From the NCBI GenBank assembly GCA_032250835.1, contig JAVVEA010000004.1:96001-160000 (forward strand): 64,000 bases of DNA, given 5' to 3'. A program made the position numbers and the translations under genes. Each line of letters opens with the position of its first letter. Position 1 is the first letter of the stretch. This document shows, piece by piece, positions 4,498 through 62,636 of the stretch. The notes beneath the pieces are model-generated. The model ran no database searches and was not told the origin of the DNA. It worked only from the letters and a program-made list of their open reading frames with translations. The stretch is from a bacterium. Its GTDB lineage: Bacteria; SAR324; XYD2-FULL-50-16.

Positions 4498-4500
4498 GGT

Positions 4501-4971
4501 CTATTTGGTGATGAACTTGAGGGTGGCTACGTCTTTGACCCCGCCCAAGTCGATATGTAAATCCAATTTCCAATAGCCGTCCATCTGTACCGGGAAGTTG
4601 AACCGGAACTTACCGTCTCCTAAAGCCTCTACCTGGACCTCGGGCAGTTGCATTTCCATGCCCGGCATGTGGTAGCTGGCCGAAGTGATGGTGGCCGCAC
4701 TGGCCGGGGTGTTGTCGCGGGCCACAACGGTGATTTCGAAACTAGCCATGCCCTTGCCGGTGGGCACCAGCGGGGCAAGGACCTTAAATTGGCGGCGCTT
4801 GGACCAATATTCGGTCTTTTTGAAGGGGCCCAGCGGGGCCTTGCCTAGTTTTTGGCTCATTTGGCTGTTCCCGGAATGATCCATGCCTTCCATACCGGCC
4901 ATGCCTTGGGCGAAGGCGGTTGGAGCTAGGCCCAAGAAGGTGAAACAAAGGGCTAAGGTTAAAGTTTTCAA
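4501..4971 (-). CDS. Periplasmic YtkA/FixH-like Met/His-rich protein
   Basis: Signal peptide, MAGMEGMDH, HMPGMEM and MDGYWKL motifs; TTG start overlaps the cusA stop. Confidence 0.7.
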   Translation of the reverse strand: MKTLTLALCFTFLGLAPTAFAQGMAGMEGMDHSGNSQMSQKLGKAPLGPFKKTEYWSKRRQFKVLAPLVPTGKGMASFEITVVARDNTPASAATITSASYHMPGMEMQLPEVQVEALGDGKFRFNFPVQMDGYWKLDLHIDLGGVKDVATLKFITK

Positions 4972-7900: not shown

Positions 7901-8111
7901 TGACAATCGGGTAGGTGACTTGGTCTTCGACCAAGTCGGGGCTCTGGCCGGGCCAGTCGGTGTAGACGATAACCTGCACGTCCGAAAGGTCGGGGATGGC
8001 GTCTAAGGGCACCTCATGCAGCGACTTGAGGCCCCAAAGCCCCATGCCTAGGGACATGACCAATACCATTGCCCAGTTTTTGACGCACCAGCGGATGATT
8101 TGCTCGATCAT
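4968..8111 (-). CDS. cusA: CusA/SilA-type heavy-metal RND efflux permease
   Basis: LDAIPDLSDVQVI, EDQVTYP, LGPDATGVGW, GSEFMPPLNEG, RIRPKLMT motifs; 1047 aa. Confidence 0.95.
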   Translation of the reverse strand: MIEQIIRWCVKNWAMVLVMSLGMGLWGLKSLHEVPLDAIPDLSDVQVIVYTDWPGQSPDLVEDQVTYPIVTSLLGAPKVRYVRGQSFFGLSFVNVIFEEGTDLYWARSRVVEYLSGIAQKIPPGVSPELGPDATGVGWVYQYALRDRSGKRSLADLRSLQDWVLAFELKSVPGVAEVASVGGFVKQYQVQLDPNRLRAYDISIEQVVNAVRKSNLDVGGRVLEISGAEHFIRGRGYIQSPEDLELVPVAEFQGTPVFVRQLGHVTIGSEMRRGAADLDGEGETVGGIVVMRWGGNAKEVIDRVKLRLKELQRALPEGVEIVPVYDRSILINEAVDHLINKLSEEVIFVALVVSIFLWNIRGSVIAIIPLPLAVLISFIPFGYSGLTANIMSLSGIAIAIGAMVDASIILVENAHKHLERWEDEGRPGPRTEVIAKAMAEMGRPLFFALLVITVSFMPIFALTGQEGKLFKPLAWTKTFSMAAAAILAITLTPALAVLLMRGKALPEEKHPISRALIAFYAPLVRWVLKRPKRVLILALLGVVSIWPLATHLGSEFMPPLNEGTLLYMPTAVPGISIGEAVDIAHRVGREIKEVPEVDHVFTKIGRSESATDPAPLSMIEAVVSFKPKSQWRQGYDLDKLTQELDRKVQIPGMPNIWWMPIQTRTEMLATGIRSAVGIKVLGADLAQVEAVGKAIEKTLEDLPGTRSAFAERSTGGHFIDFEIDRQKAARYGLSAEKILTSLAVAVGGKNVSIAVEGRERYPIQVRYARDFRSSIEELEKILIPTPKGAHIPIAQLAKIFVRTGPPMIRDENGRLASFVFVDIDQNKTNLGDYVAAAKERIANEVPLPVGVSLAWAGQYEHLQRAAKTLATLVPLTLALVVLLIYLNTRSVAETVIVLMAVPFSLIGAFGLLWVLDYHLSVAVWVGIIALAGLDAETGVVMLLYLKLSHRRWAAEGRLKTPQDFVEALVEGAAGRIRPKLMTAASTWLGLLPILWSTGAGAGIMKRIAAPMVGGIATSVVLELLVYPVIYSIWRGRNFTVAPSTQEEA

Positions 8112-9928
8112 TTAGACTCCTCTGGCTCACCAAAGCGGGGCAGCGCATTGCGGAGTTGGGCCTCAGAACTGATCAGGAAGTTGGCCGAGAAGCTGATCAT
8201 CTGACCGGCCTCTAAGCCTTTAGTGATCTCTACCCACTCCCCGTCGCTGACGCCGGTCTCTACCTCCTGGGGGATAAAATAGCCCTGGCCTTGGGTCTTA
8301 AAGACGTATTTATGTCGCCCCGAATACAGCACCGCGCGGCGCGGCACCGACAGGCGCATCCCCTGGTCACTGCGGATTTCCACGTCTGCAAACATGCCCG
8401 GCTTGAGCAGCAAATCTTCGTTGCCCACCTCGATGCGTAATTTTAGGGTGCGGGTGCGGGGGTCTAAGAAGGGGTAGAGGTAGTCCACCTTGCCTTCAAA
8501 GCGGTAGCCCGGCTGGTAAGGCAGGCTCAAAATCGCCCGGTCCCCGGCGTGGACCTCATAGGCCTCGTGTTCGAAGATTTCGGCGAGCGCCCAAAGCTGG
8601 GTTAGGTCCGCGATTTTAAAGAGCGGCTGGCCCTTTTTAGCAAAGGCCCCGTCCACCAGATTTTTCTTTAAGATAAAGCCCGTAAAGGGGCTGGTGATCA
8701 CCTGTGCCCTAGGCGGGCGTTGGCGTTTTTGTAGCTCCGCCATCTGTTCGGGGCTAAAGTCCCAGAGCTGTAGTTTCTCACGGGCCGAGCGGTAAAGGAC
8801 TTGGTCTGTTTTGCTGCTGCGGGAATCGCGGTGAAGTTGCAGGAAAATTTCCTGGGCCTCGAAGAGTTCGGGGCTGTAGATACTAAAGAGGGGGTCGCCT
8901 TTTTTGATGAACTCCCCTTCGCGGTTGGCGAAGAGTTTTTCCACGTCCCCTGAATACTTGAGCGAAACGTCGTAAACCTGGGTCTCGTCCAGTTCGATCC
9001 TGGCCACGCTGCTCAAGCCTTTGGAGAGGTGGCGTAGCTCCGCCTTGCCCAGCTCCACACCGATCATCATCATCCGCTTTTTGCCCAGGTAGACGTTGGG
9101 ACCCGCCGGGAGGTCCGGGGCGTTTTCGTCGGGGCCTTTATAAAGGATGTCCGGGTGGCCTACGCTGAGCGCAAAGGGAAACTCGGCCAGGGTCTTGCCC
9201 TTCTTTTGGATGCGGATCGGCAGTTCCCAACCGCCGCCCATACTGAGAATCACTTCGGCTTGGTACTTACCGCCGCCCAAGGATTCGGCTTGGGAGGTGG
9301 TGGACATGCGCGGCATGGTGCCCATCTCGGGCATAAAGGCCTCAATCTCAATTTGGGCCTGTTCTACGGGCTTACCGGCAGCATCGTTGAGGGTAAAGGT
9401 CAGTAGGTTTTCGCCCACTTGCGGCGGGTTGGGGTCAATGGCCAGGGCGTCAATCACCCATTCGCCGCGTTTATGGCCCTTGACTTGGGCTGGGGGCGCG
9501 CCTTCAGGTGCCCCTTTATAGTTCAAGCCCGGCGCGCCGACGCTGAGCGCGAAGGGAAATTCTTTCAGCGTCTTTCCCGCCTTTTGGATGCGGATCGGCA
9601 GTTCCCAACCACCGGCCATACCCAGGATCACCTCGGCCTGATATTGCCCAGAGCCTAAGGATTCGGCGGTGGACTTGGTGGACATGCGCGGCATGGTGCC
9701 CATTTCGGGCATAAAGGCTTCTACCTCGATTTCCGCTGACTCTATAGGTTGTCCCTGAACATTGCTCAGCTTAAAAGTCAGTAGGTTTTCCCCCACTTCG
9801 GGGGACCCGGGGTCTAGCTTGATTTGGGTGATTATATAGTCGCCTTGCCGGAAGCTCTCGGCGGCCAAGCCGACATTGGCAAAGAACCCCAATAAGATCA
9901 GGGTCCATCCAAGGGATTTTAACAACAT
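8108..9928 (-). CDS. cusB: CusB-type periplasmic adaptor with two tandem N-terminal YtkA/FixH-like domains
   Basis: C-terminal MFP (IYSPELFEAQE, YLYPFLDPRTRT, LKPGMFA); N-terminal duplicated AFMPEMGTMPRM...GGWELPIRI domain. Confidence 0.88.
   Translation of the reverse strand: MLLKSLGWTLILLGFFANVGLAAESFRQGDYIITQIKLDPGSPEVGENLLTFKLSNVQGQPIESAEIEVEAFMPEMGTMPRMSTKSTAESLGSGQYQAEVILGMAGGWELPIRIQKAGKTLKEFPFALSVGAPGLNYKGAPEGAPPAQVKGHKRGEWVIDALAIDPNPPQVGENLLTFTLNDAAGKPVEQAQIEIEAFMPEMGTMPRMSTTSQAESLGGGKYQAEVILSMGGGWELPIRIQKKGKTLAEFPFALSVGHPDILYKGPDENAPDLPAGPNVYLGKKRMMMIGVELGKAELRHLSKGLSSVARIELDETQVYDVSLKYSGDVEKLFANREGEFIKKGDPLFSIYSPELFEAQEIFLQLHRDSRSSKTDQVLYRSAREKLQLWDFSPEQMAELQKRQRPPRAQVITSPFTGFILKKNLVDGAFAKKGQPLFKIADLTQLWALAEIFEHEAYEVHAGDRAILSLPYQPGYRFEGKVDYLYPFLDPRTRTLKLRIEVGNEDLLLKPGMFADVEIRSDQGMRLSVPRRAVLYSGRHKYVFKTQGQGYFIPQEVETGVSDGEWVEITKGLEAGQMISFSANFLISSEAQLRNALPRFGEPEESK
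9162..9810. repeat. Intragenic direct repeat of the two YtkA-like domains (~9162-9430 and ~9540-9810, offset 378)
   Basis: Shared blocks such as ttttggatgcggatcggcagttcccaacc and gtggacatgcgcggcatggtgcccat. Confidence 0.85.
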
Positions 9929-15189: not shown

Positions 15190-15816
15190 ATGTTTCCCTT
15201 GATTTTTGACCTCTTTGAGCGCGGCGGGATCATGATGTATCCCCTTTTGCTCTGTTCGGTCTTGGTGCTCACCCTCACCATCGAACGCGTCCTGGTGCTG
15301 CGCCGTCAGTCGCTGTTGCCTAAAAGCGCCTTGGAGCGTTGGCGGAGCTGGCTCGGTCAGGGGGTACCCGTACCACTACCCCCGTCCAGCCCGGCTTTGC
15401 TGGACCAATTGTTGTTGCCCATCTTGCCCTATTTTCCGATCCCTCTTTCGCGCCTAGAGGAGCGTTTTTCGGACCTCTCGCGCAAAGCCAAAAACCGCCT
15501 GGAACGGGGTGTGGTTTATCTCGACACCATCGCCGGAGTGGCCCCGTTGTTGGGTCTTCTGGGGACTGCGCTGGGTATGGTGGAGGTCTTTGCTAAGCTG
15601 AGTTTAGGCGGGCAAACCAAGATCGAAGCCCTTTCGGGCGGCATCAGCCAAGCCTTATTGACCACTGTGGCGGGCTTGGTGGTGGGGATTCCGGCGCTGA
15701 TCGCCGCGAACCTTTTCACCCGGCAGATCGAGAACCTTTTACTCAGCGCTGAAGACCAAGTAAACGGCTTGTTGGATCAATATTTTGACCAGATGATTGA
15801 TCATGAAACTCGTTGA
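15190..15816 (+). CDS. exbB: MotA/TolQ/ExbB proton channel protein
   Basis: APLLGLLGTALGM and GISQALLTTVAGL motifs. Confidence 0.88.
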   Translation: MFPLIFDLFERGGIMMYPLLLCSVLVLTLTIERVLVLRRQSLLPKSALERWRSWLGQGVPVPLPPSSPALLDQLLLPILPYFPIPLSRLEERFSDLSRKAKNRLERGVVYLDTIAGVAPLLGLLGTALGMVEVFAKLSLGGQTKIEALSGGISQALLTTVAGLVVGIPALIAANLFTRQIENLLLSAEDQVNGLLDQYFDQMIDHETR

Positions 15817-28329: not shown

Positions 28330-29202
28330 TTACCACTCCTTACCGTGGCATTGGTAACAGCTTTGCGCGATGTCGCTACCGCGTAGGTCGGTACCGTGGC
28401 ACTCTTCACACACGCCCACCGGGTTTTTGTATTCCGTCCCGTGCAGATAGCCGTCCTTCTCTTTAGTGTGCGGGTACTCGCTCATGCGCCACCTGGCCCC
28501 GTGGCAGCTATAGCAACTAGGCGCATCGGTGCTGCCTTTGAGGTCGCTCCCGTGGCAGGCATCACAAGTCCCCACCGGGCTGTTTAGGGCCGCGCCGTGT
28601 TTCTTGCCGCCTTTGCTTACGTCATGGGCATAGCTTGAGAAAAGCCATCTGGCCCCATGGCAAGTATAACAGCTAGGTGCCGTCACACCGCCCTTCAGGT
28701 CGCTGCCGTGGCAGTCCGCACAATTGGTGGTGGGCTGGTACATCCCCAAGCTGCTGTGCATGTAGCCGCCTTGGTTGACCGTGTGGGTCTCCAAGAGGCT
28801 CCACTTGTCACCGTGGCAGTCATAACAACCGGGGCGGAAGGTCTCTTTGCCGTGGACGTTTTCTTTTTTGAGGCTGCTGCCGCCGTGGCAGTCGCCACAA
28901 TTGTCCGGTGCGTTGAAAAAGCCCTTTTTGTGTTTGACCCCGGCGATGCTCACTAAGTGGTCGTCGTTGTTCCAGATCACCCCGTGGCAATCGTAACAAC
29001 CGGGCACGTAGGCCTGACCTTTAAGGTTGACCCCGTGGCAGGCGGTGCAATCCTTGGCTTCTTTATAAAGCTTTTTGCCGTGCTCGGCTCCGTTGAGCAC
29101 AATGTTGTGGCTGATCAAGCCGGGAATCTCTTTACAGCCGGCCACCCCGAAGAGAGCCAGCATCAGGCCCAAGAGGGCCATTCTTAAAACTTGACGCCGC
29201 AT
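28330..29202 (-). CDS. Decaheme c-type cytochrome lipoprotein
   Basis: Lipobox LFGVAG-C; 10 CxxCH motifs arranged as five di-heme repeats. Confidence 0.92.
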   Translation of the reverse strand: MRRQVLRMALLGLMLALFGVAGCKEIPGLISHNIVLNGAEHGKKLYKEAKDCTACHGVNLKGQAYVPGCYDCHGVIWNNDDHLVSIAGVKHKKGFFNAPDNCGDCHGGSSLKKENVHGKETFRPGCYDCHGDKWSLLETHTVNQGGYMHSSLGMYQPTTNCADCHGSDLKGGVTAPSCYTCHGARWLFSSYAHDVSKGGKKHGAALNSPVGTCDACHGSDLKGSTDAPSCYSCHGARWRMSEYPHTKEKDGYLHGTEYKNPVGVCEECHGTDLRGSDIAQSCYQCHGKEW

Positions 29203-49315: not shown

Positions 49316-50554
49316 ATGAGCCCCATCCAACGGCTCTTTAGCGAACCCCATCGTCTCTATTTCACCAGCGGCGCTTTGGCGCTGCTGTTGCCCATGGCTT
49401 GGTGGGGTCATTATCTGGCCCTACGGCTGATCCGCCCGCCGGAACTTTACGGCAACCCGCTGGCGGTGCACGCCTTTGGTCTGCTTTTCGGGGCCTTTCC
49501 CTTGGCGGGGTTGGGCTTTTTGTTTACCGCCTTCCCGCGCTGGTGTGATTCTTTAGATCATTTGGGCAAAAGTTATCTGGGGCCCTGGTGGACCTTGAGC
49601 TTTGGCCTGATCTTTTACTTTTTCCAGCTTTGGAGCCAAGGGCCCTGGGGGCGGATTGGGGCCTTTTTGCTCTTTGTGGGCTTACTCTGGGCTTGGTTGC
49701 ACTTGGCCCGGCTTTGGAAGGCAGGACGTCAGCCCGACAAACGCCAACCGCTGTACCTGCTGCTGGTGTTCTTCGGCGGTGTGGCGGGCTCAGGTTTGGC
49801 CGCACTCTACCAATACTTCCCCAACCCGGCCCTGTACAACACGGCGCTGGCCTTGGGCGTCTATTTCTTTTGGCCGGGGTTGGTTTTGGTGATCGGCTGG
49901 CGGTTGCTACCCTTTTTTACTGAAAGCCGCTTAGGGCCCATCGGCTGCCGCTCAATGCCCTGGGCTTTGCCTCTGTGGATCGTCGGCTTGGCGGTCAAAG
50001 CGACCGGGCAGGTCTTGGACTTCAAGCAGCTTTGGCTGCTTTCGGACGGGCTCTTGCTGGGCGTGACGCTGGTTCAGTTTTATCATTGGAAGCTTTGGCG
50101 GCGTAAAGAGATGATGCTCTCGTACCTTTACCTTGCCCTGGCTTGGTTCCCCGTCTCCTTGTTGTTTGGGCTGGCTGCCGGTTGGGACCGATTGAGCGGC
50201 GGTTATGAGTTGCATTTGGACATGGCCGGGGTCCACGCGTTGACCGTGGGGATGATGGCCAGCATGCTTTTTGCCATGCTCAGCCGGGTTTCCATGGGCC
50301 ATTTTGGTTTGCGTCCGGCGGCGACTTGGCTGACCAATACAGTTTTCTTTTTGTTGCAGTTAGCCGCCCTAAGCCGGGTAGGCCTGGAATTAGCGCTGAT
50401 CGCCCAAGCCAATGTCTTGAGCTGGTTGAGCCTCCCGGCGGGCCTTTGGCTGGCTGCTTTTGGCCTCTGGGCCTTGAGGTTTTTGCCTTTTTACTTTAAA
50501 CCTAGAGCCGACGACGCGCCCGAAGCGCCCCGGTCGGTACCACCCCAACCTTAG
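49316..50554 (+). CDS. nnrS: NnrS-family membrane protein
   Basis: PHRLYF, GFLFTAFPRW, RLLPFFT and HALTVG...RVSMGH motifs. Confidence 0.85.
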   Translation: MSPIQRLFSEPHRLYFTSGALALLLPMAWWGHYLALRLIRPPELYGNPLAVHAFGLLFGAFPLAGLGFLFTAFPRWCDSLDHLGKSYLGPWWTLSFGLIFYFFQLWSQGPWGRIGAFLLFVGLLWAWLHLARLWKAGRQPDKRQPLYLLLVFFGGVAGSGLAALYQYFPNPALYNTALALGVYFFWPGLVLVIGWRLLPFFTESRLGPIGCRSMPWALPLWIVGLAVKATGQVLDFKQLWLLSDGLLLGVTLVQFYHWKLWRRKEMMLSYLYLALAWFPVSLLFGLAAGWDRLSGGYELHLDMAGVHALTVGMMASMLFAMLSRVSMGHFGLRPAATWLTNTVFFLLQLAALSRVGLELALIAQANVLSWLSLPAGLWLAAFGLWALRFLPFYFKPRADDAPEAPRSVPPQP

Positions 50555-54533: not shown

Positions 54534-54681
54534 GTATCAAAAGACCCTATCCACCAAGGCGTTTCGAAGCCAAAGGCCGAAGGTGACGGGCATGACGCCG
54601 CAAGCACTGCAAGTGTTGCTCATGTTAACTGTCGGTGAAGCCGACTCCCTACTGCTCGAAGCTCGAACAATTTGGCCTTTT

Positions 54682-54822
54682 GGCTGGGCAATACTCGCCG
54701 GCTCGCATTGCTACCCACGCAGCCCTCGGCCTGACGGCCTCGAAGCTGCTTAGCGCGGCTAGGGGCTCTAAGCCGCTCGCAAAAGGGAACCCAGGACCCT
54801 TATCCCGCAAGTCTTGGGATTT
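54682..54822 (+). repeat. Left arm of a ~140-bp inverted repeat
   Basis: About 91% identical (13 differences in 141) to the reverse complement of 57420-57559. Confidence 0.93.
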
Positions 54823-54933
54823 ACCGGCGCAAAATTAGGCAACGGTCCCCTGAATTAGGGTGAACTATCAGGGAACTTTCTTGAAGTTTCGCCCTACTCC
54901 GGCTATTATATGGGGTAGCACAAGGAGAGCAAA

Positions 54934-55128
54934 ATGATCCAACTTCATACCGAATTTTTGGTTGATGAGTCAGGGCAGAAGAAGGCCGTTCTTTTGCCTT
55001 TGAAGGACTGGGAGCAGGTCCTTTGCGAGCTGGAAGAGTTGGATGACATCCGCGCCTATGACCAAGCAAAACAGTCTCCCGAGGAATTTGTTCCTCTGGA
55101 AGAAGGTCTGAAGCTCCTCCGCAAGTAG
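54934..55128 (+). CDS. Putative type II antitoxin
   Basis: AGGAG RBS; acidic 64-aa protein (LVDESGQKKAVLLP...ELEELDDIRAYD) directly upstream of the relE remnant. Confidence 0.75.
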   Translation: MIQLHTEFLVDESGQKKAVLLPLKDWEQVLCELEELDDIRAYDQAKQSPEEFVPLEEGLKLLRK

Positions 55129-55132
55129 GCAG

Positions 55133-55321
55133 GTGAGCTACCAAGTCCTGCTCTCTCGCAGCGCAATCAAATCCCTCAAAAAGTAACGCCAGCTGACCGA
55201 CCGCGCCTGGCGCATCCGCGTCGGTAACTACCGAATCATCTACGAAATCAACGAAGGCGAATTAAAGATTTTGGTGATCCTGATCGGTCACCGCAAGGAA
55301 GTCTATCGTGAAATCAGGTGA
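55133..55321 (+). pseudogene. relE: RelE/ParE-family toxin pseudogene
   Basis: VSYQVLLSRSAIKSLKK* then WRIRVGNYRIIYEINEGELKILVILIGHRKEVYR; early stop and missing middle. Confidence 0.85.
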
Positions 55322-55510
55322 CTGAATACCAATAGACAGTTACTAAAGAAAAACAGCTGCAAGTCAGCATCGACTACTACCAAAATTTCAAAAATAGGTA
55401 TACTGTCGCCTGATTTACAGGATTCCGACAGGGCTCTCAGACCATCGAGATCATCGACTGTCGATTGCGCTCGTTAGAATGATAATCAAAATTTCTAAGG
55501 TTTCCACGGT

Positions 55511-56065
55511 ATGTATACCCTATTTTTCTACGCAATATTTTTCATCTACGTGGCTGCGACAGTAATTCTCAGTTGGCGTTGGCCTGCCGTTCGATGGGAA
55601 TATGATTTGATTTGGAACTATTGTTTGATTGTCATTTCGGTCCTTACGGTAGCCGCGCTAAAAATCGAAATTAGTAAGCTCCAGACAAGCCTTTTGGCAA
55701 AACTAGTCGTTTTTTTAACCGTGGTTATAAACATCGGCTTAACGTTCAGATTGCTGACAGTCAGTGATCACGTCGAGGTTGATGTTTCGCTTCTGTTTAA
55801 TTCATTTCTCCCCTTCATTGTTACCAATATTGGGGTGCTATTTTTTTGGGCGTACATCTTCGCACAACCAGGGACAAATAAATATGAAGTTGCGCACACA
55901 ATGAGCTTCGGCGCTCCAATAATCTTGGTCCTCGGAATGGGGTGTTTCCATTTAACTGGACCCGGAATTAGTGAAAATTTTTTTGTTGCCTCAATGACAA
56001 TTTGCGTAATCAATATGATTCCCTTCCTCGTTGCTGCAAGACGCCTAGCGGACAAAGATGAATGA
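55511..56065 (+). CDS. AT-rich multi-pass membrane protein
   Basis: 184 aa with ~6 hydrophobic segments; overlaps the next gene by 8 nt. Confidence 0.7.
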   Translation: MYTLFFYAIFFIYVAATVILSWRWPAVRWEYDLIWNYCLIVISVLTVAALKIEISKLQTSLLAKLVVFLTVVINIGLTFRLLTVSDHVEVDVSLLFNSFLPFIVTNIGVLFFWAYIFAQPGTNKYEVAHTMSFGAPIILVLGMGCFHLTGPGISENFFVASMTICVINMIPFLVAARRLADKDE

Positions 56066-57377
56066 CAAAAAAATTAACATAACAAACAAGGCAAGACATC
56101 TTCTATCACTTCTATATTCTTTTTTCCGGGGAAAGGTAGTAGAAGTGTCTTCCTATCTTTTTAGGATCGCGGCCAAGTGGACAATATTATTGCATATTTT
56201 CAGGGCCATTTCTAGATGCTTAGAAAGCCGCTATCTTTTAGTTCTTTATATTGTTTGTTTAGAGTTCATTGTTGTTCTTATTCTAGCTATAACTGCGAGT
56301 TCTTTTTGGTCCTTTGATAACCGTAGAATTGATCAATACGAGAAAGTTTGCATTTTATACTTGGCTGTTTTTGGGGAGTCAGAAAGGTGTACGGAGGTGC
56401 TGGCCGAAGGAAACATGCTTGTGACGTTTCAAAACAACGAGACGTCAGGTCACTTTTTTAAGATCACTCACTCGCCACAAGATGGGATTCACTTAGATTT
56501 AAACGTACAGTTCTTTAACTATAAGGACTATCTTTCTGTAATGATATTTGTTTTTTCAATAGCAATTTACAACTTTTTGTTGCTGCAAACCCAGGTTCGG
56601 ATCTTCATTAAAGAAATTGTATGGATGAATCTCTCAATAGCGGGATTAGGTTTTTTGGTTTTCTTTTTCGGTCAAGCGTGGCTGGATAATTGGCTGTTCA
56701 TAGACTCAGCCCTGCGTTCCCCTTGGGTCGCCATTATTGTTACCATTGTGACTATGTATTTATTTTTAATGTGGTTTGGTCGGTATCAGAGGCTAAATCG
56801 GAAACAACTGATCGAGGCACTTATTGGTGGAATATCTTTGTTGGGTTTTTCTTTGTTCTTAAAGTATGGAGTTGTTGAAAATCGAATATCCCAGCAGGTG
56901 TATATAGATTTTTCAGAGGAATTGCCGGGTTTTGATGCGGGCTTCTATAAAGCTGATAAAAATCAATACTCTCAAATGAACAAGGTTTTATCAAGAATTC
57001 AGAAAGCCATTGCTGAATATGGATTGGAAGCGAACACTCTCGTAGTGGAAGGCCATACCTCTCCTGAGCAAATTAAGGATCAAAACCCATGTGGACGAGA
57101 TCCAGAGCTATGTTCGAAATGGCGGAGCTATCGCATTGATAAGGCGGTTTCAGATAAACAAGGAAACTTAATTCCTTTAAAATCCAACATTGAGTACTTT
57201 TTTAATAGTAATATTGAGCTTGGTTTTTTGAGAGCTTATGTAGTTTGGGATTTTTTAAACCGCCAAAGAACAGAAAAACTACCGACAATACAAAGGATTT
57301 ATCCAGTATCGGTTTCCCATTTCTATCCAAGCCCTAAAAAGACCAGGAGAGTGATTGTCAGGTTGATAAAGCAATAA
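56058..57377 (+). CDS. AT-rich multi-TM protein with C-terminal OmpA/MotB-like domain
   Basis: About 5 TM segments, then LVVEGHTS...NIELGFLRAYVVWDFL...RRVIVRL. Confidence 0.7.
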   Translation: MNDKKINITNKARHLLSLLYSFFRGKVVEVSSYLFRIAAKWTILLHIFRAISRCLESRYLLVLYIVCLEFIVVLILAITASSFWSFDNRRIDQYEKVCILYLAVFGESERCTEVLAEGNMLVTFQNNETSGHFFKITHSPQDGIHLDLNVQFFNYKDYLSVMIFVFSIAIYNFLLLQTQVRIFIKEIVWMNLSIAGLGFLVFFFGQAWLDNWLFIDSALRSPWVAIIVTIVTMYLFLMWFGRYQRLNRKQLIEALIGGISLLGFSLFLKYGVVENRISQQVYIDFSEELPGFDAGFYKADKNQYSQMNKVLSRIQKAIAEYGLEANTLVVEGHTSPEQIKDQNPCGRDPELCSKWRSYRIDKAVSDKQGNLIPLKSNIEYFFNSNIELGFLRAYVVWDFLNRQRTEKLPTIQRIYPVSVSHFYPSPKKTRRVIVRLIKQ

Positions 57378-57419
57378 TGTTTACGCTAATCAGCGTTATT
57401 GTATATATTTTTCAGCCCC

Positions 57420-57559
57420 AAATCCCAAGACTTGCGGTTTACGATCTTGGGTTCCCTTTTGCGAGCGTCTTAGAGCCCCTAGCCGCGCTAAGCAGCTTCA
57501 AGAACCTCAGGCCGAGGGCTGCGTGGGTAGCAATGCGAGCTGGCGAGTAATGCCCAGCC
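57420..57559 (-). repeat. Right arm of the ~140-bp inverted repeat
   Basis: Reverse complement of 54682-54822. Confidence 0.93.
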
Positions 57560-57643
57560 TAAGGCGTCGGTGCAGCCGACACAAGTTCCCAAGGGCCCCT
57601 GGGCCCCGCTTACTTGACCTTTTCTAAGGGCAACTTAGGTATT

Positions 57644-58207
57644 TTAGTTCAGAATATTGGCCAACGCCGCCTCGGTCCGGGTGCCGTCCTTAAAGTCCTC
57701 ATTGAGGTGCAACACCCCCGCTTGATCAAAAACCAAAGTGATCCCCATGGTCCCGTTAAACTCGCCCACCGCCGCTTGGTTAACGTCCGCAAGGGCGGTC
57801 AAGCCCGAGCTGGCAAATCCGCTTTCCACCAATTCGCGGGCCGTCGCCGCCGAACTCCCCGAGACGTAATCGATCAGGTAATAACCCGCCGTGGGATACA
57901 TCGCCTTGGTGTGGTTGCTGAGGTGGTCCTGGTGGCTGGCGCAGATCGGGCACCACATGGTGAAATAAAAGACTGTAGCGGGGTGCTGGGCCACCAAGTC
58001 ACTCAATTGCACCGCGTTGCCGCTGGTGTCGTACAAGGTGAGATTTAAATTGGTTCCCGATTGCTCCGTTTCGCCCTGGGCGTTGACCTGGGTTTGGTCG
58101 CGCTGGTCGGTGGCGCTGGGGTTGAGGTCGTCGGCTATATCCTTACAGCCCACCAAAGCGAACAACCCAAGGGCCACCCAAAGGGACTTGAATTTAGAAA
58201 AATACAT
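57644..58207 (-). CDS. Thioredoxin-fold (redoxin) lipoprotein
   Basis: Lipobox LVG-C; VFYFTMWCPIC motif. Confidence 0.8.
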   Translation of the reverse strand: MYFSKFKSLWVALGLFALVGCKDIADDLNPSATDQRDQTQVNAQGETEQSGTNLNLTLYDTSGNAVQLSDLVAQHPATVFYFTMWCPICASHQDHLSNHTKAMYPTAGYYLIDYVSGSSAATARELVESGFASSGLTALADVNQAAVGEFNGTMGITLVFDQAGVLHLNEDFKDGTRTEAALANILN

Positions 58208-59141
58208 GGCTTAAGGAGAAGCTAAGGGTTTGGGTCTTCGGGAAGTTTGTTCCCGAAAGGCTGTTGTTCCAACTACCTTTGACGATCCAGTCTTTTTCGC
58301 CAGTGGACCAAGCGCCGGTCAGGCTGAAGCTACGTTTGGAAACTTCCGTGCCTTCGGTCGGAACGCCATTGATCCGGGCGGCGGCCTCAACCATGTCGGC
58401 CATCGCCCCCGTTAAGGTGAAGATGTCGAAGCTGTAAAGCTGCCAGCTATAGCCCAAAGAAAGGCCCTGGGTTTGGCGGTCGCCCAAGACTTTGTCGTAA
58501 GGCTTGACCCAAGAGCCATATTCGCGGTTCACAGGACGGGTGAAATGTTTGCCATAACCGAAGTTGACCCCGGCATTAAAACCGCCAATGGATTTTTCGA
58601 TGTTCACCGTCGCATCGGCGCGGTAAAAGCCCCGTCCGGTGATGTCGAAGCTGTTGCGGACGTCGTCGTAAGGAGAGATGCCAGTGGGGACCGTCAAGCC
58701 CAGCCCGAAATAAATTGCTGGGCGTAGGTCCGAAATGTCGCGCACTTCGGTCACGCAAGTGACCTCGTCAAAGGTTTCGTAGAGCAGGTTTACGGATGTA
58801 TCACCTAAGCCCTGGGTGCGGCTGGTGATCCCCGAATAGCGGTTGTTGTTGTCAACATATGAGCCCACCACCGAACCCTGCCAACGCCCAGCAAAGCGGT
58901 AGCCATAGCCCGCCGAGATGCGGTTTTGGGAGAGCGAAGAGTTGGCCGGGTCCGGGCGGTAGGTGCCCGCGCCGTCCCAATAACCGTCGTAGACCTCGCG
59001 AGCCACCGAGACATCGACCATCTGCGGCCCGCCCTTGGGCAAGATCAACGCCCCCGCCGAGCCCCCGCCGCAGCAGGATGCGGCCTGTAAAGAGGCGGGC
59101 AGCCAAAGGGAAAGCGAGAAAAGCAAAACAAAATACTTCAT
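58194..59141 (-). CDS. Outer membrane beta-barrel transporter-like protein with N-terminal Cys pair
   Basis: Signal peptide followed by ASCCGGG; GLGD and GLTVPTG motifs; C-terminal FF. Confidence 0.7.
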   Translation of the reverse strand: MKYFVLLFSLSLWLPASLQAASCCGGGSAGALILPKGGPQMVDVSVAREVYDGYWDGAGTYRPDPANSSLSQNRISAGYGYRFAGRWQGSVVGSYVDNNNRYSGITSRTQGLGDTSVNLLYETFDEVTCVTEVRDISDLRPAIYFGLGLTVPTGISPYDDVRNSFDITGRGFYRADATVNIEKSIGGFNAGVNFGYGKHFTRPVNREYGSWVKPYDKVLGDRQTQGLSLGYSWQLYSFDIFTLTGAMADMVEAAARINGVPTEGTEVSKRSFSLTGAWSTGEKDWIVKGSWNNSLSGTNFPKTQTLSFSLSHVFF

Positions 59142-59159
59142 ATGGATTTTGGGCCAGGA

Positions 59160-59179
59160 GGCCGGGCCGAAGCCCGGCC
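59160..59179 (-). terminator. Intra-operon hairpin with UUCG loop
   Basis: On the minus strand GGCCGGGC-UUCG-GCCCGGCC, just after the lipoprotein stop; no strong U-tract. Confidence 0.5.
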
Positions 59180-59195
59180 CCCAAAGGGTTTACCT

Positions 59196-60830
59196 CTAAG
59201 GAGTGACCGTGAAGGTAGCGTAGCCGTTGCTGGTACCTACGGCGGAGCCGTCGGTGGTCAGTTGGCTGCTGTCTAGAGTCGCTTTGATGTAAATCTTGCC
59301 GCTGGTCCCGCTGGTCAACCCGCTGATCCCGCTCAAGGTCCAAACACCAGAGCCCGAGCTGGTCATGTTGGTCCAGGTGCTGGCGTCGGTGCTGGCTTGC
59401 AGGGTAATGGTCGTCGGGGTGAAGGCGTAGCTGGTTCCCGTGTTGTAAGTCGTTCCGCTAACAATCGCCGGGAAGCTCATCATCGATTCACGGGTGGCCA
59501 AATACACACTAAAGGTATGCGACCCGGTGCTACCGCTCAGGCTGTTTTTGAACAAGAAGAAGTAGCGGGCTTCGGTGCCGCCGGACATGGCCATGGTTAG
59601 GGCGGTCTGGTGGCGCAGTGTGGCGCGGGTGGTGTCGGACATCGAAGGCTTGACCAGCGGGTAAAAGACCGCCGATTCGGTGGCGCCGCTCTTGGTGACC
59701 TTGGCGGTCAGTTGCCAATAGCCCATTTGGGTGGTCCCCATGTAACTGGGCATCAGGTAATAGAGCGTACAGCTGTGGGTTCCAGCGGTGCTGCTTTCGG
59801 TGCAGCCCACCACCGGAGAACTGTGGCTGTAAGAATCCATATGCATCATCGGGGTCAGCGCCAAGCTGGCACCGCTCACCGCGTTGCCCGAGTGATCGGC
59901 AACCTTCAGGCTGAACATAGTCTTGCCCTGCATGGCCGCCATGCTGCCGGGAACGTAGGTGACCATATAGCTGGAGGTTTTGACCATTTTACCGAAGGCC
60001 GTATTATCCAAGTCACTGGCCACTAAGCCCGTTTTGTTTTGGGTGCCTTCAAAAAAGCCCCGGTAGGCGGTGTCAAACTGGCTGGGGAGCGCCGCCGAAA
60101 GGTCCGATCCGGCAAAACTTAACTGGCTGCTGCCTGCTTTGCCGTCCAGGCTGCCGTCGGCCAAGTCTTGGCCCAAGATAGCCAGAAGGCTGTCCTGATC
60201 ACTGGCGGCACCGCCCAGATTTTTGTTCAGTTGGCTGAAGCTGGCGGCGCGCAGACCGGCCTTCTTTTGGGCAGTGGTAGCGGTAGCATCGGGGGTGCTG
60301 GTCGCTGAAATGGGCAGTTGGCTATGGTCGACGCTATAGCCAAACTGGTCGCTAAAGGCGGCGCGGGCGGCGGTTAGACGGTCGGCCAGAGTGGTGACGC
60401 TACTGTGGTGCGTTGCCCACTGCGCGGCGGCGGTGGCCACAATGGTGGTCTCGGGCGTTAGGCTTACGCTTGTGGCGGTACTGCTCAGCTCGTTGGCGGC
60501 TACGTAAGCCGAGAGCCCGTTGGTGGCGTTGACACTGCTGCCGGTGGCTTCGTCGGTATAAGAACCGCCGGTGGCGGTGAAGAGCAGCGTTTGGGCGCGT
60601 TGTTCTTCAGTTAAAGCTACGCTGTAGTTTCCGTCGGCATCGGTGGTGGTGGTCGTAAACCAAACTCTGCCTTGTTCATCGGCCACTTGTACCTGAGCAC
60701 CGGCAGTGGGGCCAGCCATCACCCGGCCCGAAATGGTGACGTCGTTGTTGGTGCTGTCGTTAGCCGACTTACAGCCCACCGATAGGGCCGAGAGGGCCAC
60801 AAGGCCCCAAAAGGTCATCTTAAATTGCAT
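59196..60830 (-). CDS. Ser/Thr-rich surface lipoprotein with Ig-like and YtkA/FixH-like domains
   Basis: Lipobox LSVG-C, TTDADGNY, PMMHMDSYSHSSP and YYLMPS...MGYWQL motifs. Confidence 0.75.
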   Translation of the reverse strand: MQFKMTFWGLVALSALSVGCKSANDSTNNDVTISGRVMAGPTAGAQVQVADEQGRVWFTTTTTDADGNYSVALTEEQRAQTLLFTATGGSYTDEATGSSVNATNGLSAYVAANELSSTATSVSLTPETTIVATAAAQWATHHSSVTTLADRLTAARAAFSDQFGYSVDHSQLPISATSTPDATATTAQKKAGLRAASFSQLNKNLGGAASDQDSLLAILGQDLADGSLDGKAGSSQLSFAGSDLSAALPSQFDTAYRGFFEGTQNKTGLVASDLDNTAFGKMVKTSSYMVTYVPGSMAAMQGKTMFSLKVADHSGNAVSGASLALTPMMHMDSYSHSSPVVGCTESSTAGTHSCTLYYLMPSYMGTTQMGYWQLTAKVTKSGATESAVFYPLVKPSMSDTTRATLRHQTALTMAMSGGTEARYFFLFKNSLSGSTGSHTFSVYLATRESMMSFPAIVSGTTYNTGTSYAFTPTTITLQASTDASTWTNMTSSGSGVWTLSGISGLTSGTSGKIYIKATLDSSQLTTDGSAVGTSNGYATFTVTP

Positions 60831-60846
60831 CGTTTTTTTCAGACAA

Positions 60847-60947
60847 AGGTCCCTCTACTCCCGGTTCATGCAGGAGCAGAAAAAATAAGGGTTTTTTCAC
60901 AAGCTAAAGGTCGAGAATAAATTCCCGATTAGGCTTGTGGGGGACCT
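60847..60947 (-). promoter_or_regulatory. Candidate structured leader/attenuator
   Basis: 60941-60947 is complementary to 60847-60853 and encloses two hairpins. Confidence 0.5.
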
Positions 60948-61294
60948 CGGTCGTTTGGATGCCGCTCGAAAGAAGAGCAAATATGCAGGGGAGCCGCCAC
61001 CAACAGGGTGGGGACGAAAGAAAGTGAAGGCTGGTCAGTAACCTGGGCCGGGTCAACCACCAGCAACGCCGCACCGCAAAGGTCGCAGTCGCCGCAATCA
61101 TGCTCGGTCGCTGGGCCGTCTTGGTTTGCCGTGGCACCGACGGAGCAGACAAACTGGTTGCTGCTAAGCAGTTCTTCTAAGCTGAGCTGAAAATCACCGG
61201 CCATCAACACCGTAGGCAGCGCAAAGACGCCATGCATCAGCAGGGCGAGCAGCAGCAGAGGTGTATAAAAGGGCTTTTTCAACGAGCGGGTCAT
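60929..61294 (-). CDS. DUF2946-like leader protein (CxxCxxC, C-terminal RGPP)
   Basis: Signal-like N-terminus, FVC, HDCGDCDLC and ...RGPPQA*. Confidence 0.75.
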   Translation of the reverse strand: MTRSLKKPFYTPLLLLALLMHGVFALPTVLMAGDFQLSLEELLSSNQFVCSVGATANQDGPATEHDCGDCDLCGAALLVVDPAQVTDQPSLSFVPTLLVAAPLHICSSFERHPNDRGPPQA

Positions 61295-61505
61295 GAACTC
61301 AGTTTTCGGCGGTTAACGGAACGCATTGGATAACCAACCTAAAGGCTCTCGGTCAAGTAAAGCTTTTTTGATGGGGTCGGTTGTTGAGTGATAGAACGGG
61401 GGGTCTTGAGTTTACTAAGCTTGGCGGCTTCTGCCAAGCGCTAGTGCCGAGTAGCGGCTCCCATCGTTACCAACGGCTGATAGATCGAATGACCCCATTG
61501 AGACG

Positions 61506-62636
61506 TTAGGGCAAAGAGGTAAGGAGTACGGCCAATTGGGTCTGGCTGCCGCAACCGGTCTTACCGAAGACCTGTTTGAGCTGTCCACGGACCGTTTCGT
61601 AGGCAACGCCAACGGAATCGGCATAGGTTCTTAAATCCGTCCCCGAGGCGACTGACCGGGCTAATTTAGCTTCCGCCTTAGTTAGGCCAAAAGCCTGCCC
61701 TATTTGCATGGTCGGAGCGATCCTGGCTTCACCCGGAATCCCTATCAATAGGATCGTTCCTGGATTGGTGCCCAAAAAATCTAAGTCCCAGGGCTGGTCT
61801 TCAAGACACAAAAAGCGGAGCAATAGAGGCGGCCCTGTTTCTTCGGTGCAACGCACCACCCAGTCACCCGAAGCGAGTCTTCTTTGATAAGGAGGTGAAA
61901 GCCGGCGTCTAATTTGCCGGTCTAGTTGCGGTGAGCTGGCCCTCAATTGCCTCTGGTGCAACCGTAAATCCCGCCGTCCCTCCAGTAGATTTCTGGCCGG
62001 TTCGTTCTGGTACTCAAGTTGGCCCTTTTCATCGAACACCATCGCCCCCCAGCGTATCTGGCCTAAGGTCTGTTCCAGCACCCGATTTTGCAACTGAAGC
62101 GAACCGAACTGCTGCTGTAGAATCAATGACTTTTGTACAAGCGGTAGTAATTGGCCAATGAACTGGACGGCCCAGGCCGGGTGTGTTTCTTGTTTTTGTG
62201 CCCTCAGAAAACCACCAATAAAAGAATGAGCGCCGTCTAGCTTTAGGGAAAAACCGGCGGGACAGGCTATACCTTGCGGGCGTACAAACTCTTGAAAGTA
62301 TTCTTCTTGAATATACTCCCTATAGGTGCTGTTGATCTGGTCCAGATCCGCAAAAGTGTACACATGGTTAGCCGAAGGGTTGGCGACGATCATTTTTTGG
62401 AAGGGGTCTAATCTGGCGTAGTGCGCCCCGAAACGCTTTACCAAGTGCTCGTCGAATCCGTGGTGGTAGCCTTGTATGAAGCGGAAATCGGTCCGATCAA
62501 AAATCCGATAGTGGAAGATCGGGCAGTCTACCACTTGGGCAATCTCATGGAATACTTCTGGGGCAGCGTCTAAAGAATAGGACAGATCCATGATCCGTCC
62601 TCCAATCCGCATTAGAGTCTGGGCATCTGGAGGCAT
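61506..62636 (-). CDS. LuxR-type HTH regulator with sensor/PAS region
   Basis: YARLDP, PAS-like segment and FGLTKAEAKLA...TVRGQLKQVFGKTG..Q..L. Confidence 0.85.
   Translation of the reverse strand: MPPDAQTLMRIGGRIMDLSYSLDAAPEVFHEIAQVVDCPIFHYRIFDRTDFRFIQGYHHGFDEHLVKRFGAHYARLDPFQKMIVANPSANHVYTFADLDQINSTYREYIQEEYFQEFVRPQGIACPAGFSLKLDGAHSFIGGFLRAQKQETHPAWAVQFIGQLLPLVQKSLILQQQFGSLQLQNRVLEQTLGQIRWGAMVFDEKGQLEYQNEPARNLLEGRRDLRLHQRQLRASSPQLDRQIRRRLSPPYQRRLASGDWVVRCTEETGPPLLLRFLCLEDQPWDLDFLGTNPGTILLIGIPGEARIAPTMQIGQAFGLTKAEAKLARSVASGTDLRTYADSVGVAYETVRGQLKQVFGKTGCGSQTQLAVLLTSLP

Follow-up and report, generated by a model that had tools for sequence, protein, structure and literature searches.

The closest described relatives of the operon considered here are those led by two arrest peptides of the DUF2946 family, CruR (Bp2923) of Bordetella pertussis and CutF of Rhodobacter capsulatus. 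CruR carries a CXXC motif at residues 90-93 and an RAPP motif at residues 139-142, and the available part of its description gives the spacing between the two as varying by no more than one or two residues across more than 2000 family members (PMC9426467). For CutF, the accessible text of the preprint describes copper binding that induces stalling and switches on the downstream gene, and a model in which disulfide formation in the nascent chain decides stalling (bioRxiv 10.1101/2025.02.05.636593). Among the RAPP-like motifs tested, RGPP is the most stable inducer of arrest and acts in several contexts, and small secretory RAPP/RGPP upstream open reading frames (uORFs) are enriched upstream of genes for TonB receptors, YcnI, PCu(A)C, PepSY and thioredoxin/DsbA proteins, as stated in the portion of that study available (PMC12992588). 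Here, a four-gene operon is described from a 64,000-nucleotide (nt) stretch of a SAR324 bacterium (GCA_032250835.1, contig JAVVEA010000004.1, positions 96,001 to 160,000; hereafter the window), in which a leader of this kind precedes a lipoprotein, an outer-membrane beta-barrel and a thioredoxin-fold lipoprotein. With a probability of roughly 0.4, these genes form an arrest-peptide-controlled operon for envelope Cu(I) handling, whose products would act as an outer-membrane relay supplying cuproenzymes independently of TonB. The principle of the leader is already published for CruR, CutF and the RGPP uORFs, while the cargo module appears undescribed: the gene trio was not found described in the literature located on PF13557/COG4313, on the MetA pathway and copper, on YtkA and copper, or on DUF2946.

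ORF calls and re-translation place the four ORFs co-oriented on the minus strand in the order leader, lipoprotein, barrel and thioredoxin-fold lipoprotein (Table 1). In the window, 54 nt separate the lipoprotein and barrel genes, whereas the thioredoxin-fold gene shares 14 nt with the barrel gene, to which it is presumably coupled in translation. A sequence-only reading of the window had listed four co-oriented genes with their motifs, had pointed to the lack of a TonB-dependent receptor and had judged the cargo to be unlike that of the characterised cases. All of these genes and motifs are present; no TonB-dependent receptor was detected in the operon, among the 34 large window ORFs scanned or in the recurrent neighbour families scanned; and the cargo does differ from the characterised cases.

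Judged by its sequence, the leader is a divergent, putatively exported arrest peptide of the DUF2946/CruR type, stalling itself being predicted. Pfam profile PF11162 matches it almost from end to end (profile positions 3-117 of 117, E = 0.0098), at 17.1 bits against a cut-off of 23.7. At the same position in the closest related locus, L001, from a metagenome-assembled genome (MAG) of Candidatus Lambdaproteobacteria, a 151-residue ORF scores 25.8 bits with DUF2946, above the cut-off, and shares 33% identity with the window leader over 82 residues (E = 2e-5). By inspection, the N-terminus of the window leader shows basic K/R residues and then a hydrophobic stretch of about 20 residues. Its CGDC (residues 67-70) overlaps a second pair, CDLC (residues 70-73), forming CxxCxxC, and the C-terminus reads RGPPQA, with two residues between RGPP and the stop. 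Of the 51 candidates from a word-index search with the leader, its own protein alone was a match; HMMER, run exhaustively with a profile of the window and L001 leaders, gave eight matches at E ≤ 1e-3, of which six lie beyond those two (four small and leader-like, two long and unrelated-looking). In all four RGPP-type leaders (the window, L001/P0122, P0123 and P0125), CxxCxxC is present, the CxxC-to-RGPP spacing is exactly 45 residues and two residues follow RGPP, while the RAPP-type relatives P0127 and P0128 have spacings of 46 and 44 residues, respectively, and three trailing residues. The full-length sub-threshold Pfam match, the L001 ortholog above the cut-off and the 45-residue spacing bear out the earlier assignment to CruR-type DUF2946 leaders. 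Its treatment of R(A/G)PP as a ribosome-arrest motif agrees with the accessible text of the published work, where RGPP is a very strong arrest motif (PMC12992588).

Compared with the Bordetella cruR-bfrG-bp2921 operon, the window shares a small, putatively exported first gene product, a co-oriented operon with a long gap before the cargo, and a CxxC followed 45 residues on by R-x-P-P near the C-terminus. Unlike CruR, the window leader has RGPP rather than RAPP, two rather than three residues after it and an extra cysteine; it falls under the Pfam cut-off, its intergenic region measures 98 nt (162 nt in CruR) and is not C-rich, and its cargo is without a TonB-dependent transporter or PepSY_TM protein. 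With CutF, from the Rhodobacter cutFOG genes, it shares the character of a putatively exported DUF2946-family arrest peptide, and when the window and L001 are set beside CutF, both show strong predicted structures in which the stall codons are tied to sequence ahead of the following start. In contrast to the window leader, CutF relies on CxxxC and on a PPP motif that is EF-P-sensitive, and the gene under its control, for a multicopper oxidase, is expressed in response to copper; in the window, moreover, some 20 nt lie between the shielded sequence and the AUG, which is more than an obvious Shine-Dalgarno sequence would allow. A survey of RAPP/RGPP uORFs (EMBO J 2025) offers a broader likeness, namely a small secretory RGPP protein upstream of a metal-homeostasis-like operon with a thioredoxin-domain gene; the lipoprotein-barrel-thioredoxin module is not among the gene classes named in the available part of that survey.

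At the RNA level, the predicted fold of positions 60810-60975 has a minimum free energy of -52.6 kcal/mol (z = -4.42; none of 200 shuffles reached this stability), and in it the Arg-Gly-Pro stall codons pair with bases some 20-30 nt ahead of the AUG of the lipoprotein gene. The equivalent region of L001 is predicted to fold at -70 kcal/mol (z = -5.29) with an analogous long-range pairing. When a 28-nt stalled-ribosome footprint was masked in simulation, 22-27 kcal/mol of structure was lost in the window and L001. These modelled data fit a SecM/CutF-like scheme in which a stalled ribosome opens the next start, with a modest effect in the two sequences. CruR-like control of a Rho type is not favoured, with 20 C and 21 G in the spacer. 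Promoter-like sites, counted by consensus match only, number 4 in the region against 1.4 ± 1.1 in shuffles. The terminator scan is uninformative because 5 were found and 5.5 expected. An Rfam scan of the whole window gave no match, and therefore no known riboswitch or leader RNA lies in the window.

The three cargo genes are much more widespread than the leader. Relatives of the barrel form 650 protein clusters at E ≤ 1e-3 among 5447 candidates, and in species-representative genomes 262 stretches matched, of which 158 encode a barrel relative. The best 80 loci, which by record title are all MAGs or uncultured, were retained; they comprise 59 Gammaproteobacteria, 12 Zetaproteobacteria, four Nitrospinota, two Nitrospirota, two unclassified Proteobacteria and one Lambdaproteobacteria. 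By phmmer (E ≤ 1e-3), homologues of the lipoprotein occur in 76 of these loci, of the barrel ORF in 78 and of the thioredoxin-fold gene in 75, and 71 of the 80 hold the three together in the same order and on the same strand. In 56/75 loci the barrel gene overlaps the thioredoxin-fold gene by exactly 14 nt. Most absences fall at contig ends; one locus (L062) is without a detectable lipoprotein although upstream sequence is present. This arrangement is far beyond chance. The leader itself was recovered by phmmer in none of the 80 loci, and with a DUF2946 leader in only 1/80 the co-conservation of four genes supposed by the sequence-only reading fails for the leader and is confined to the cargo. 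AhpC_TSA genes are noted in DUF2946 operons in the part of the CruR paper available (PMC9426467), and they may be the same thioredoxin-fold gene.

Directly downstream of the module, a small c-type cytochrome gene occurs in 39/80 loci (35 of the 64 whose downstream sequence reaches 2.5 kb or more) and a gene for a TlpA/ResA-like thioredoxin in 36/80 (33 of those 64); by tblastn, neither is present in the window. In 15/80 loci the module has, within some 2-4 kb, a two-component system whose best matches are ActS/PrrB/RegB and ActR/PrrA/RegA; both genes are there in 12. These matches are full-length (E 1e-70 to 1e-77 for the RegB-like and about 1e-58 for the RegA-like proteins) and under the NCBIfam cut-offs. 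Carriers are L003 (9801-11658), where the pair is co-directional and directly follows the TlpA-like gene, L073 (3268-5101) and 13 further loci. The senC gene, whose product is a Sco homologue required for cbb3 oxidase assembly, shares a transcript with regA and/or regB in Rhodobacter-type systems (PMC9147068). Copper efflux genes (CusB-CusF with a resistance-nodulation-division, RND, pump) adjoin the module in two loci, and a second PF13557 barrel with a His/Met-rich N-terminal region adjoins it in three (L016 3957-5012, L064 3984-5006, L034 11019-12056). NHL-repeat multihaem cytochromes are found upstream in 10 loci (L003 2486-4954, L039, L040, L043, L076 and others). In some gammaproteobacterial MAGs they measure about 814-889 residues, show MtrC/MtrF-like domain matches, lie directly upstream of the lipoprotein gene and are accompanied there by further multihaem cytochromes. 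L001 has a multihaem cytochrome gene of the Cytochrome_C7/c3 type (8488-9348) directly after the thioredoxin-fold gene; its window homologue (28330-29202, minus strand; 39% identity, tblastn E = 3e-52) lies 28 kb away.

The AlphaFold model of the 544-residue lipoprotein (predicted local distance difference test score, pLDDT, 91.9; predicted template modelling score 0.86) runs from an N-terminal beta-sandwich through a helical domain into a C-terminal half rich in beta structure, and short forms of about 300 residues in 22 loci retain the C-terminal half alone. The lipoprotein holds a Met/His block (residues 329-397), in which M329, M331, H336 and M360 are invariant across the 27 lipoprotein sequences aligned. 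Pfam YtkA (PF13115) matches the window copy at E = 0.083 and 14 bits (cut-off 25.9), and 7/27 relatives at E ≤ 0.1 (best 4.7e-6). In an Atlas structure search, residues 285-450 matched a YtkA-like cluster with a template modelling (TM) score of 0.80 by query. Foldseek with the whole lipoprotein gave Helicobacter pylori CrdA (9ll2_A; TM 0.69 by target, root-mean-square deviation 3.6 over 118 columns) at rank 49, the other matches being mostly generic Ig-like. Sequence searches of the Protein Data Bank (PDB) with the lipoprotein profile and with the YtkA region alone returned nothing meaningful. The proposed YtkA-like assignment holds at the family level on the Pfam matches in relatives, the TM score and CrdA, which is a Met-rich periplasmic copper protein in the accessible part of its description (PMC9182242).

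YtkA-family proteins bring a further described system into the comparison: in CuA assembly the His/Met lipoprotein CtaK/YtkA works together with Sco, also a lipoprotein, and Sco is in turn reduced by TlpA (PMC9145763; PMC13344008). The window likewise pairs a YtkA-family His/Met lipoprotein with a thioredoxin-fold Cys lipoprotein, and a TlpA/ResA-like reductase adjoins the module in about half of the related loci. Unlike CtaK, the YtkA-like domain of the window ends a much larger multidomain lipoprotein, and unlike Sco its partner has CxxC instead of CxxxC, with no SCO1-SenC Pfam match. In addition, an outer-membrane barrel gene lies between the two and no oxidase genes are adjacent. A second, unambiguous use of YtkA is found in the same genome, in a Cus-like RND efflux operon (window 3241-9928, minus strand) of an outer-membrane factor, an AcrB-family pump and a membrane-fusion protein; the latter, of 606 residues, contains two strong YtkA-like domains (E = 2.2e-35).

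The barrel model (AlphaFold, pLDDT 81.1) matches FapF (Foldseek E = 9e-13, TM 0.69/0.74) and Pput2725 (4rl8_C; E = 1e-11, TM 0.67/0.77), with TM scores of 0.63-0.79 across FapF/Pput2725 folds. The window copy has no Pfam match; PF13557 is found in 8/25 relatives (best 1e-6) and on 14% of the members of the matching Atlas cluster, and a PDB sequence search with the barrel profile gave FapF as its best match (E = 0.049). The beta-barrel of the sequence-only reading is upheld at the family level, as one of FapF/COG4313 (PF13557) type, by Foldseek and by PF13557 in its relatives. Across 25 barrel sequences, 46-72% identical to the window copy, residues A20, S22, C23, C24, G25, G26, G27 and C129 are invariant. 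Candidate cleavage sites lie before A21 or before C23, the latter as a possible lipobox; the consensus WAASCC is compatible with a lipobox. Like the 12-stranded COG4313 channels (Pput2725) and FapF, the modelled barrel has a similar fold and a segment of about 17 residues before strand 1. In the available text on Pput2725, the N-terminal 14 or so residues occlude the lumen from the periplasmic side (PMC4493636), and by homology the SCCGGG segment should sit at this lumen-occluding position. Unlike Pput2725 and FapF, the window barrel has the invariant SCCGGG with an invariant third cysteine and an obligatory pairing with two lipoprotein genes, and is without a link to aromatic catabolism or amyloid secretion.

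For the third cargo protein, the CPIC redoxin lipoprotein of the sequence-only reading, the thioredoxin fold is confirmed at the family level: AhpC-TSA/Redoxin Pfam families match 24/24 relatives, and in the PDB its profile matches a pneumococcal thioredoxin lipoprotein (2yp6, 7e-10) and ResA (3c71, 3e-8). Residues Y81, M84, W85, C86, P87, C89, D113, Y114, M154 and T157 are invariant among relatives, and a nearly invariant His flanks the CxxC (MWCPxC..H). The cis-proline loop is gone, in that LPTT of ResA and IPTE of the pneumococcal protein align to an invariant MGTT; because of this replacement the protein is not classed as a canonical oxidoreductase, and the "thiol-redox" label given earlier to the module may be wrong, as true thiol-disulfide oxidoreductases have this proline. 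SCO1-SenC Pfam gave no match in 24 members at E ≤ 0.1, and the motif is CxxC and not CxxxC. The Met beside CxxC together with the missing cis-proline possibly forms a metal site, and it is our speculation from the sequence that the protein is more like a Sco-type metal carrier than a reductase, a likeness that would be functional only. Between its lipid anchor and the thioredoxin fold, the tether (residues 24-36) has a conserved linear motif, DDLxPSG, whose P30 and S31 do not vary among 24 sequences; such conservation is not usual in a linker and hints at a docking peptide.

In other lineages the same cargo stands behind other small ORFs. The 62 loci with at least 450 nt upstream were screened for ORFs ending near the lipoprotein start with a Cys motif and PP in the last 12 residues, and six were flagged (L001, L006, L026, L049, L054 and L077). 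The L077 candidate looks like a c-type cytochrome, that of L049 is doubtful, and a further leader was found by eye in L011. Those of L006, L011 and L026, all from Zetaproteobacteria, begin with an export-like N-terminus and have in common a C-x-C-x-C cluster, a spacer of 47 residues in every case and a PPP[KR] tail; Pfam matches none of them significantly. The tail recalls GPPPRL of CutF, and on their sequences these ORFs are possibly a CutF-like arrest leader family in their own right. The same cargo thus comes under differing leaders by lineage, which argues that it is coupled to different sensors, and by analogy the two leader types resemble paradigms of opposite polarity. The "acquisition" role in the sequence-only reading is not established, the PPP leaders of the Zetaproteobacterial cargo being similar to CutF, a leader of opposite polarity to CruR.

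Table 1. Positions of the operon, its sequence motifs and the leader-like ORFs of related loci (window coordinates unless a locus is named)
Feature	Position	Strand	Basis
Leader ORF, 121 residues	60929-61294	-	ORF translation
CGDCDLC codons, residues 67-73, putative periplasm-exposed metal-sensing motif	61076-61096	-	re-translation
RGPP codons, residues 116-119, putative ribosome arrest site	60938-60949	-	re-translation
Leader-lipoprotein intergenic region, 98 nt	60831-60928	-	gene spacing
Lipoprotein, 544 residues	59196-60830	-	lipobox ...SVGC
YtkA-like Met/His domain, residues 285-450	59481-59978	-	invariant M329, M331, H336, M360 and fold
Outer-membrane beta-barrel, 315 residues	58194-59141	-	signal peptide, then ASCCGGGS
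SCCGGG codons, residues 22-27, invariant segment at predicted mature N-terminus	59061-59078	-	re-translation and alignment
Thioredoxin-fold (redoxin) lipoprotein, 187 residues	57644-58207	-	lipobox LVGC
WCPIC codons, residues 85-89	57941-57955	-	re-translation
Weak sigma-70-like promoter match upstream of leader	61409-61437	-	TTGGCA-17-TAAACT, 9/12 consensus matches
Zetaproteobacterial small upstream ORFs	L006 4456-5019; L011 4291-4791; L026 4707-5072		motif comparison

In the proposed mechanism, the N-terminus of the leader would be exported through Sec, so that when the ribosome reaches RGPP the CxxCxxC, 45 residues upstream, would have just emerged on the periplasmic side. RGPP would arrest elongation at the peptidyl-transferase centre, and metal binding at the leader cysteines, or its absence, would alter the speed of release from arrest. 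The stalled ribosome would open the RNA structure that pairs the stall codons with sequence 5' of the lipoprotein gene and would in this way set expression of the cargo; in this genome, copper would switch the operon off, as with CruR. Of the cargo, the FapF/COG4313-like barrel, presumably 12-stranded, would present its invariant Cys-Cys-Gly-Gly-Gly on an N-terminal lumen-occluding segment, the lipoprotein would give a Met/Met/His/Met Cu(I) site of the YtkA type (CtaK/CrdA-like), and the thioredoxin-fold lipoprotein, with its CxxC, invariant Met and nearly invariant His, would act as a Sco-type-like metal carrier. The relay would pass Cu(I) from outside into the periplasm for cuproenzymes such as haem-copper oxidases, without TonB. 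We infer copper as the ligand, contact among the three proteins, the direction of transport, stalling and the regulatory polarity.

Several observations weigh against this Cu(I) relay. For the window proteins, the Pfam scores for DUF2946, YtkA and Redoxin are all under the curated cut-offs, and we infer the link of all three cargo proteins to copper. A leader hidden Markov model built from six sequences, run against all ORFs of at least 40 residues in the 80 loci, matched L001 alone, and most of the other recurrent neighbours of the module are housekeeping and not copper genes. Regulatory polarity is not readable from the motif, because the Zetaproteobacterial PPP[KR] leaders resemble the copper-induced CutF. 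The 98-nt spacer is neither C-rich nor G-poor, and a CruR-like Rho mechanism is not indicated because it is not C-rich; with the footprint masked, the gain in mean unpaired probability at -25..-1 is modest (from 0.42 to 0.55 for the window and from 0.37 to 0.59 for L001). The most conserved segments of the barrel, residues 13-29 (SCCGGG) and 155-169 (the PTGISPYDD...FDITGRG loop), both have pLDDT below 50, so that the placement of the cysteines relative to the lumen and to C129 is modelled at low confidence. A search for barrel fusions at E ≤ 1e-10 among 8000 long candidates, in itself weak evidence, found none.

A broader form of the Cu(I) relay can be formulated, and we regard it as doubtful. 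The cargo would be an unrecognised TonB-independent outer-membrane Cu(I) route in marine and sediment chemolithoautotrophs, running from the Cys-Cys arm of the plugged barrel to the two lipoproteins and on to cuproenzyme assembly, under interchangeable sensors (an RGPP DUF2946 leader, a Cys-cluster/PPP leader or a RegB/RegA-like system). Apart from a few TonB-dependent receptors, little is understood of how copper passes the outer membrane of Gram-negative bacteria, and here a compact module of three genes is singled out by an arrest leader whose family has been linked to copper by experiment. If the relay is real, it would be a candidate for passive, thiol/thioether-based entry or exit of Cu(I), and one cargo under RGPP leaders, PPP leaders or a redox two-component system would amount to a natural experiment. 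If copper is the wrong ligand, an explanation would still be needed for the invariant Cys-Cys at the N-terminus of a plugged barrel and for a thioredoxin fold that has lost its cis-proline.

Among the alternatives, transport in the opposite direction survives best, and we hold it to be unlikely. The operon would then serve copper or silver detoxification or export, with induction by copper through CutF-like stalling, and periplasmic Cu(I) would be held on the Met/Cys sites and leave through the barrel. Copper-induced stalling that turns the downstream gene on is what the available CutF text describes (bioRxiv 10.1101/2025.02.05.636593), and the Zetaproteobacterial cargo has PPP[KR] leaders that are like the GPPPRL tail of that protein; the window leader itself, however, bears the CruR signature of CxxC, 45-residue spacing and R-x-PP in place of CxxxC and PPP. 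Likewise, the lipoprotein domain resembles CrdA, a copper-resistance determinant, CusB-CusF and RND genes are adjacent in two loci, and the two YtkA domains of the Cus-like fusion protein mean that YtkA serves efflux in this genome, but neither multicopper oxidase nor CopA occurs among the recurrent neighbour families, and the linkage to TlpA-like, cytochrome c and RegB/RegA-like genes points to the biogenesis of respiratory cuproenzymes.

The same linkage can be turned towards redox chemistry, a reading that we consider decidedly unlikely. Here the module would not transport metal: the channel would be gated by a redox switch, the vicinal Cys-Cys of the barrel plug, whose state the thioredoxin-fold lipoprotein would set using electrons drawn from the TlpA-like protein and cytochrome c, and the leader would sense periplasmic redox state instead of copper. 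Such a device would fit the 14-nt overlap of the barrel and thioredoxin-fold genes in 56/75 loci, the TlpA/ResA-like and cytochrome c genes downstream in about half of the loci, and RegB/RegA, which by their NCBIfam names are redox-responding regulators. In the accessible parts of the sources, RAPP/RGPP uORFs precede DsbA and thioredoxin genes too (PMC12992588), and the CutF model has a nascent-chain disulfide deciding stalling (bioRxiv 10.1101/2025.02.05.636593). It gives no role, however, to the invariant Met/His YtkA-like site, the thioredoxin-fold lipoprotein is without the cis-proline that substrate-binding oxidoreductases keep, and every DUF2946 member characterised in the available text of the two family papers is copper-responsive (PMC9426467; bioRxiv 10.1101/2025.02.05.636593).

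A Gly-flanked Cys-Cys arm could also carry sulfur, as persulfide or polysulfide, covalently across the outer membrane in sulfur-oxidising lineages. SoxY has a Gly-flanked cysteine arm, and Chromatiales, Thiotrichaceae, Thiohalomonadales and Ectothiorhodospiraceae are known for sulfur oxidation; many carriers of the module belong to these groups, and its cysteines lie in a flexible glycine-rich segment with thiol-redox partners nearby. We nevertheless find this highly improbable, since the module is present as well in 12 Zetaproteobacteria, four Nitrospinota and two Nitrospirota loci, no sox or dsr genes occur among the recurrent neighbour families scanned, and the Met/His YtkA site and DUF2946 leader point to metal. 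Scarcely credible is an ordinary COG4313 channel for a hydrophobic small molecule, with two unrelated envelope lipoproteins and a non-regulatory small exported protein, for although COG4313 channels are implicated in the uptake of hydrophobic molecules in the part of that paper available (PMC4493636) and PF13557 is found in 8/25 barrel relatives, this would leave the strict order in 71/80 loci and the conserved overlap, the invariant Cys and Met/His motifs of all three proteins, the exact spacing and terminal RGPP of the leader, and the lack of aromatic-catabolism genes among the neighbours without explanation.

Around the operon, a LuxR-like gene lies upstream of the leader (61506-62636); phmmer found no homologue in any of the 80 loci, and it was kept out of the system for this reason. 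An ExbB/MotA-family gene is present elsewhere in the window (15190-15816), although no TonB-dependent receptor occurs among the large ORFs scanned, and an NnrS-family gene (49316-50554) directly precedes a gene for B12-dependent methionine synthase. On the other side of the operon, a 2.6-kb segment within 54679-57562, which starts 82 nt past the thioredoxin-fold gene's 3' end, has a GC content of 0.38-0.45, against about 0.57-0.60 in its flanks. It is bordered by long inverted repeats (54679-54805 with 57436-57562; 127 nt, 90% complementary) and an adjoining 31-nt pair. Inside it lie a small ORF (54934-55128) and two ORFs that look like multi-pass membrane proteins (55511-56065 and 56058-57377) and have no family match. 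The segment looks inserted at the spot where other genomes hold the cytochrome c and TlpA-like genes.

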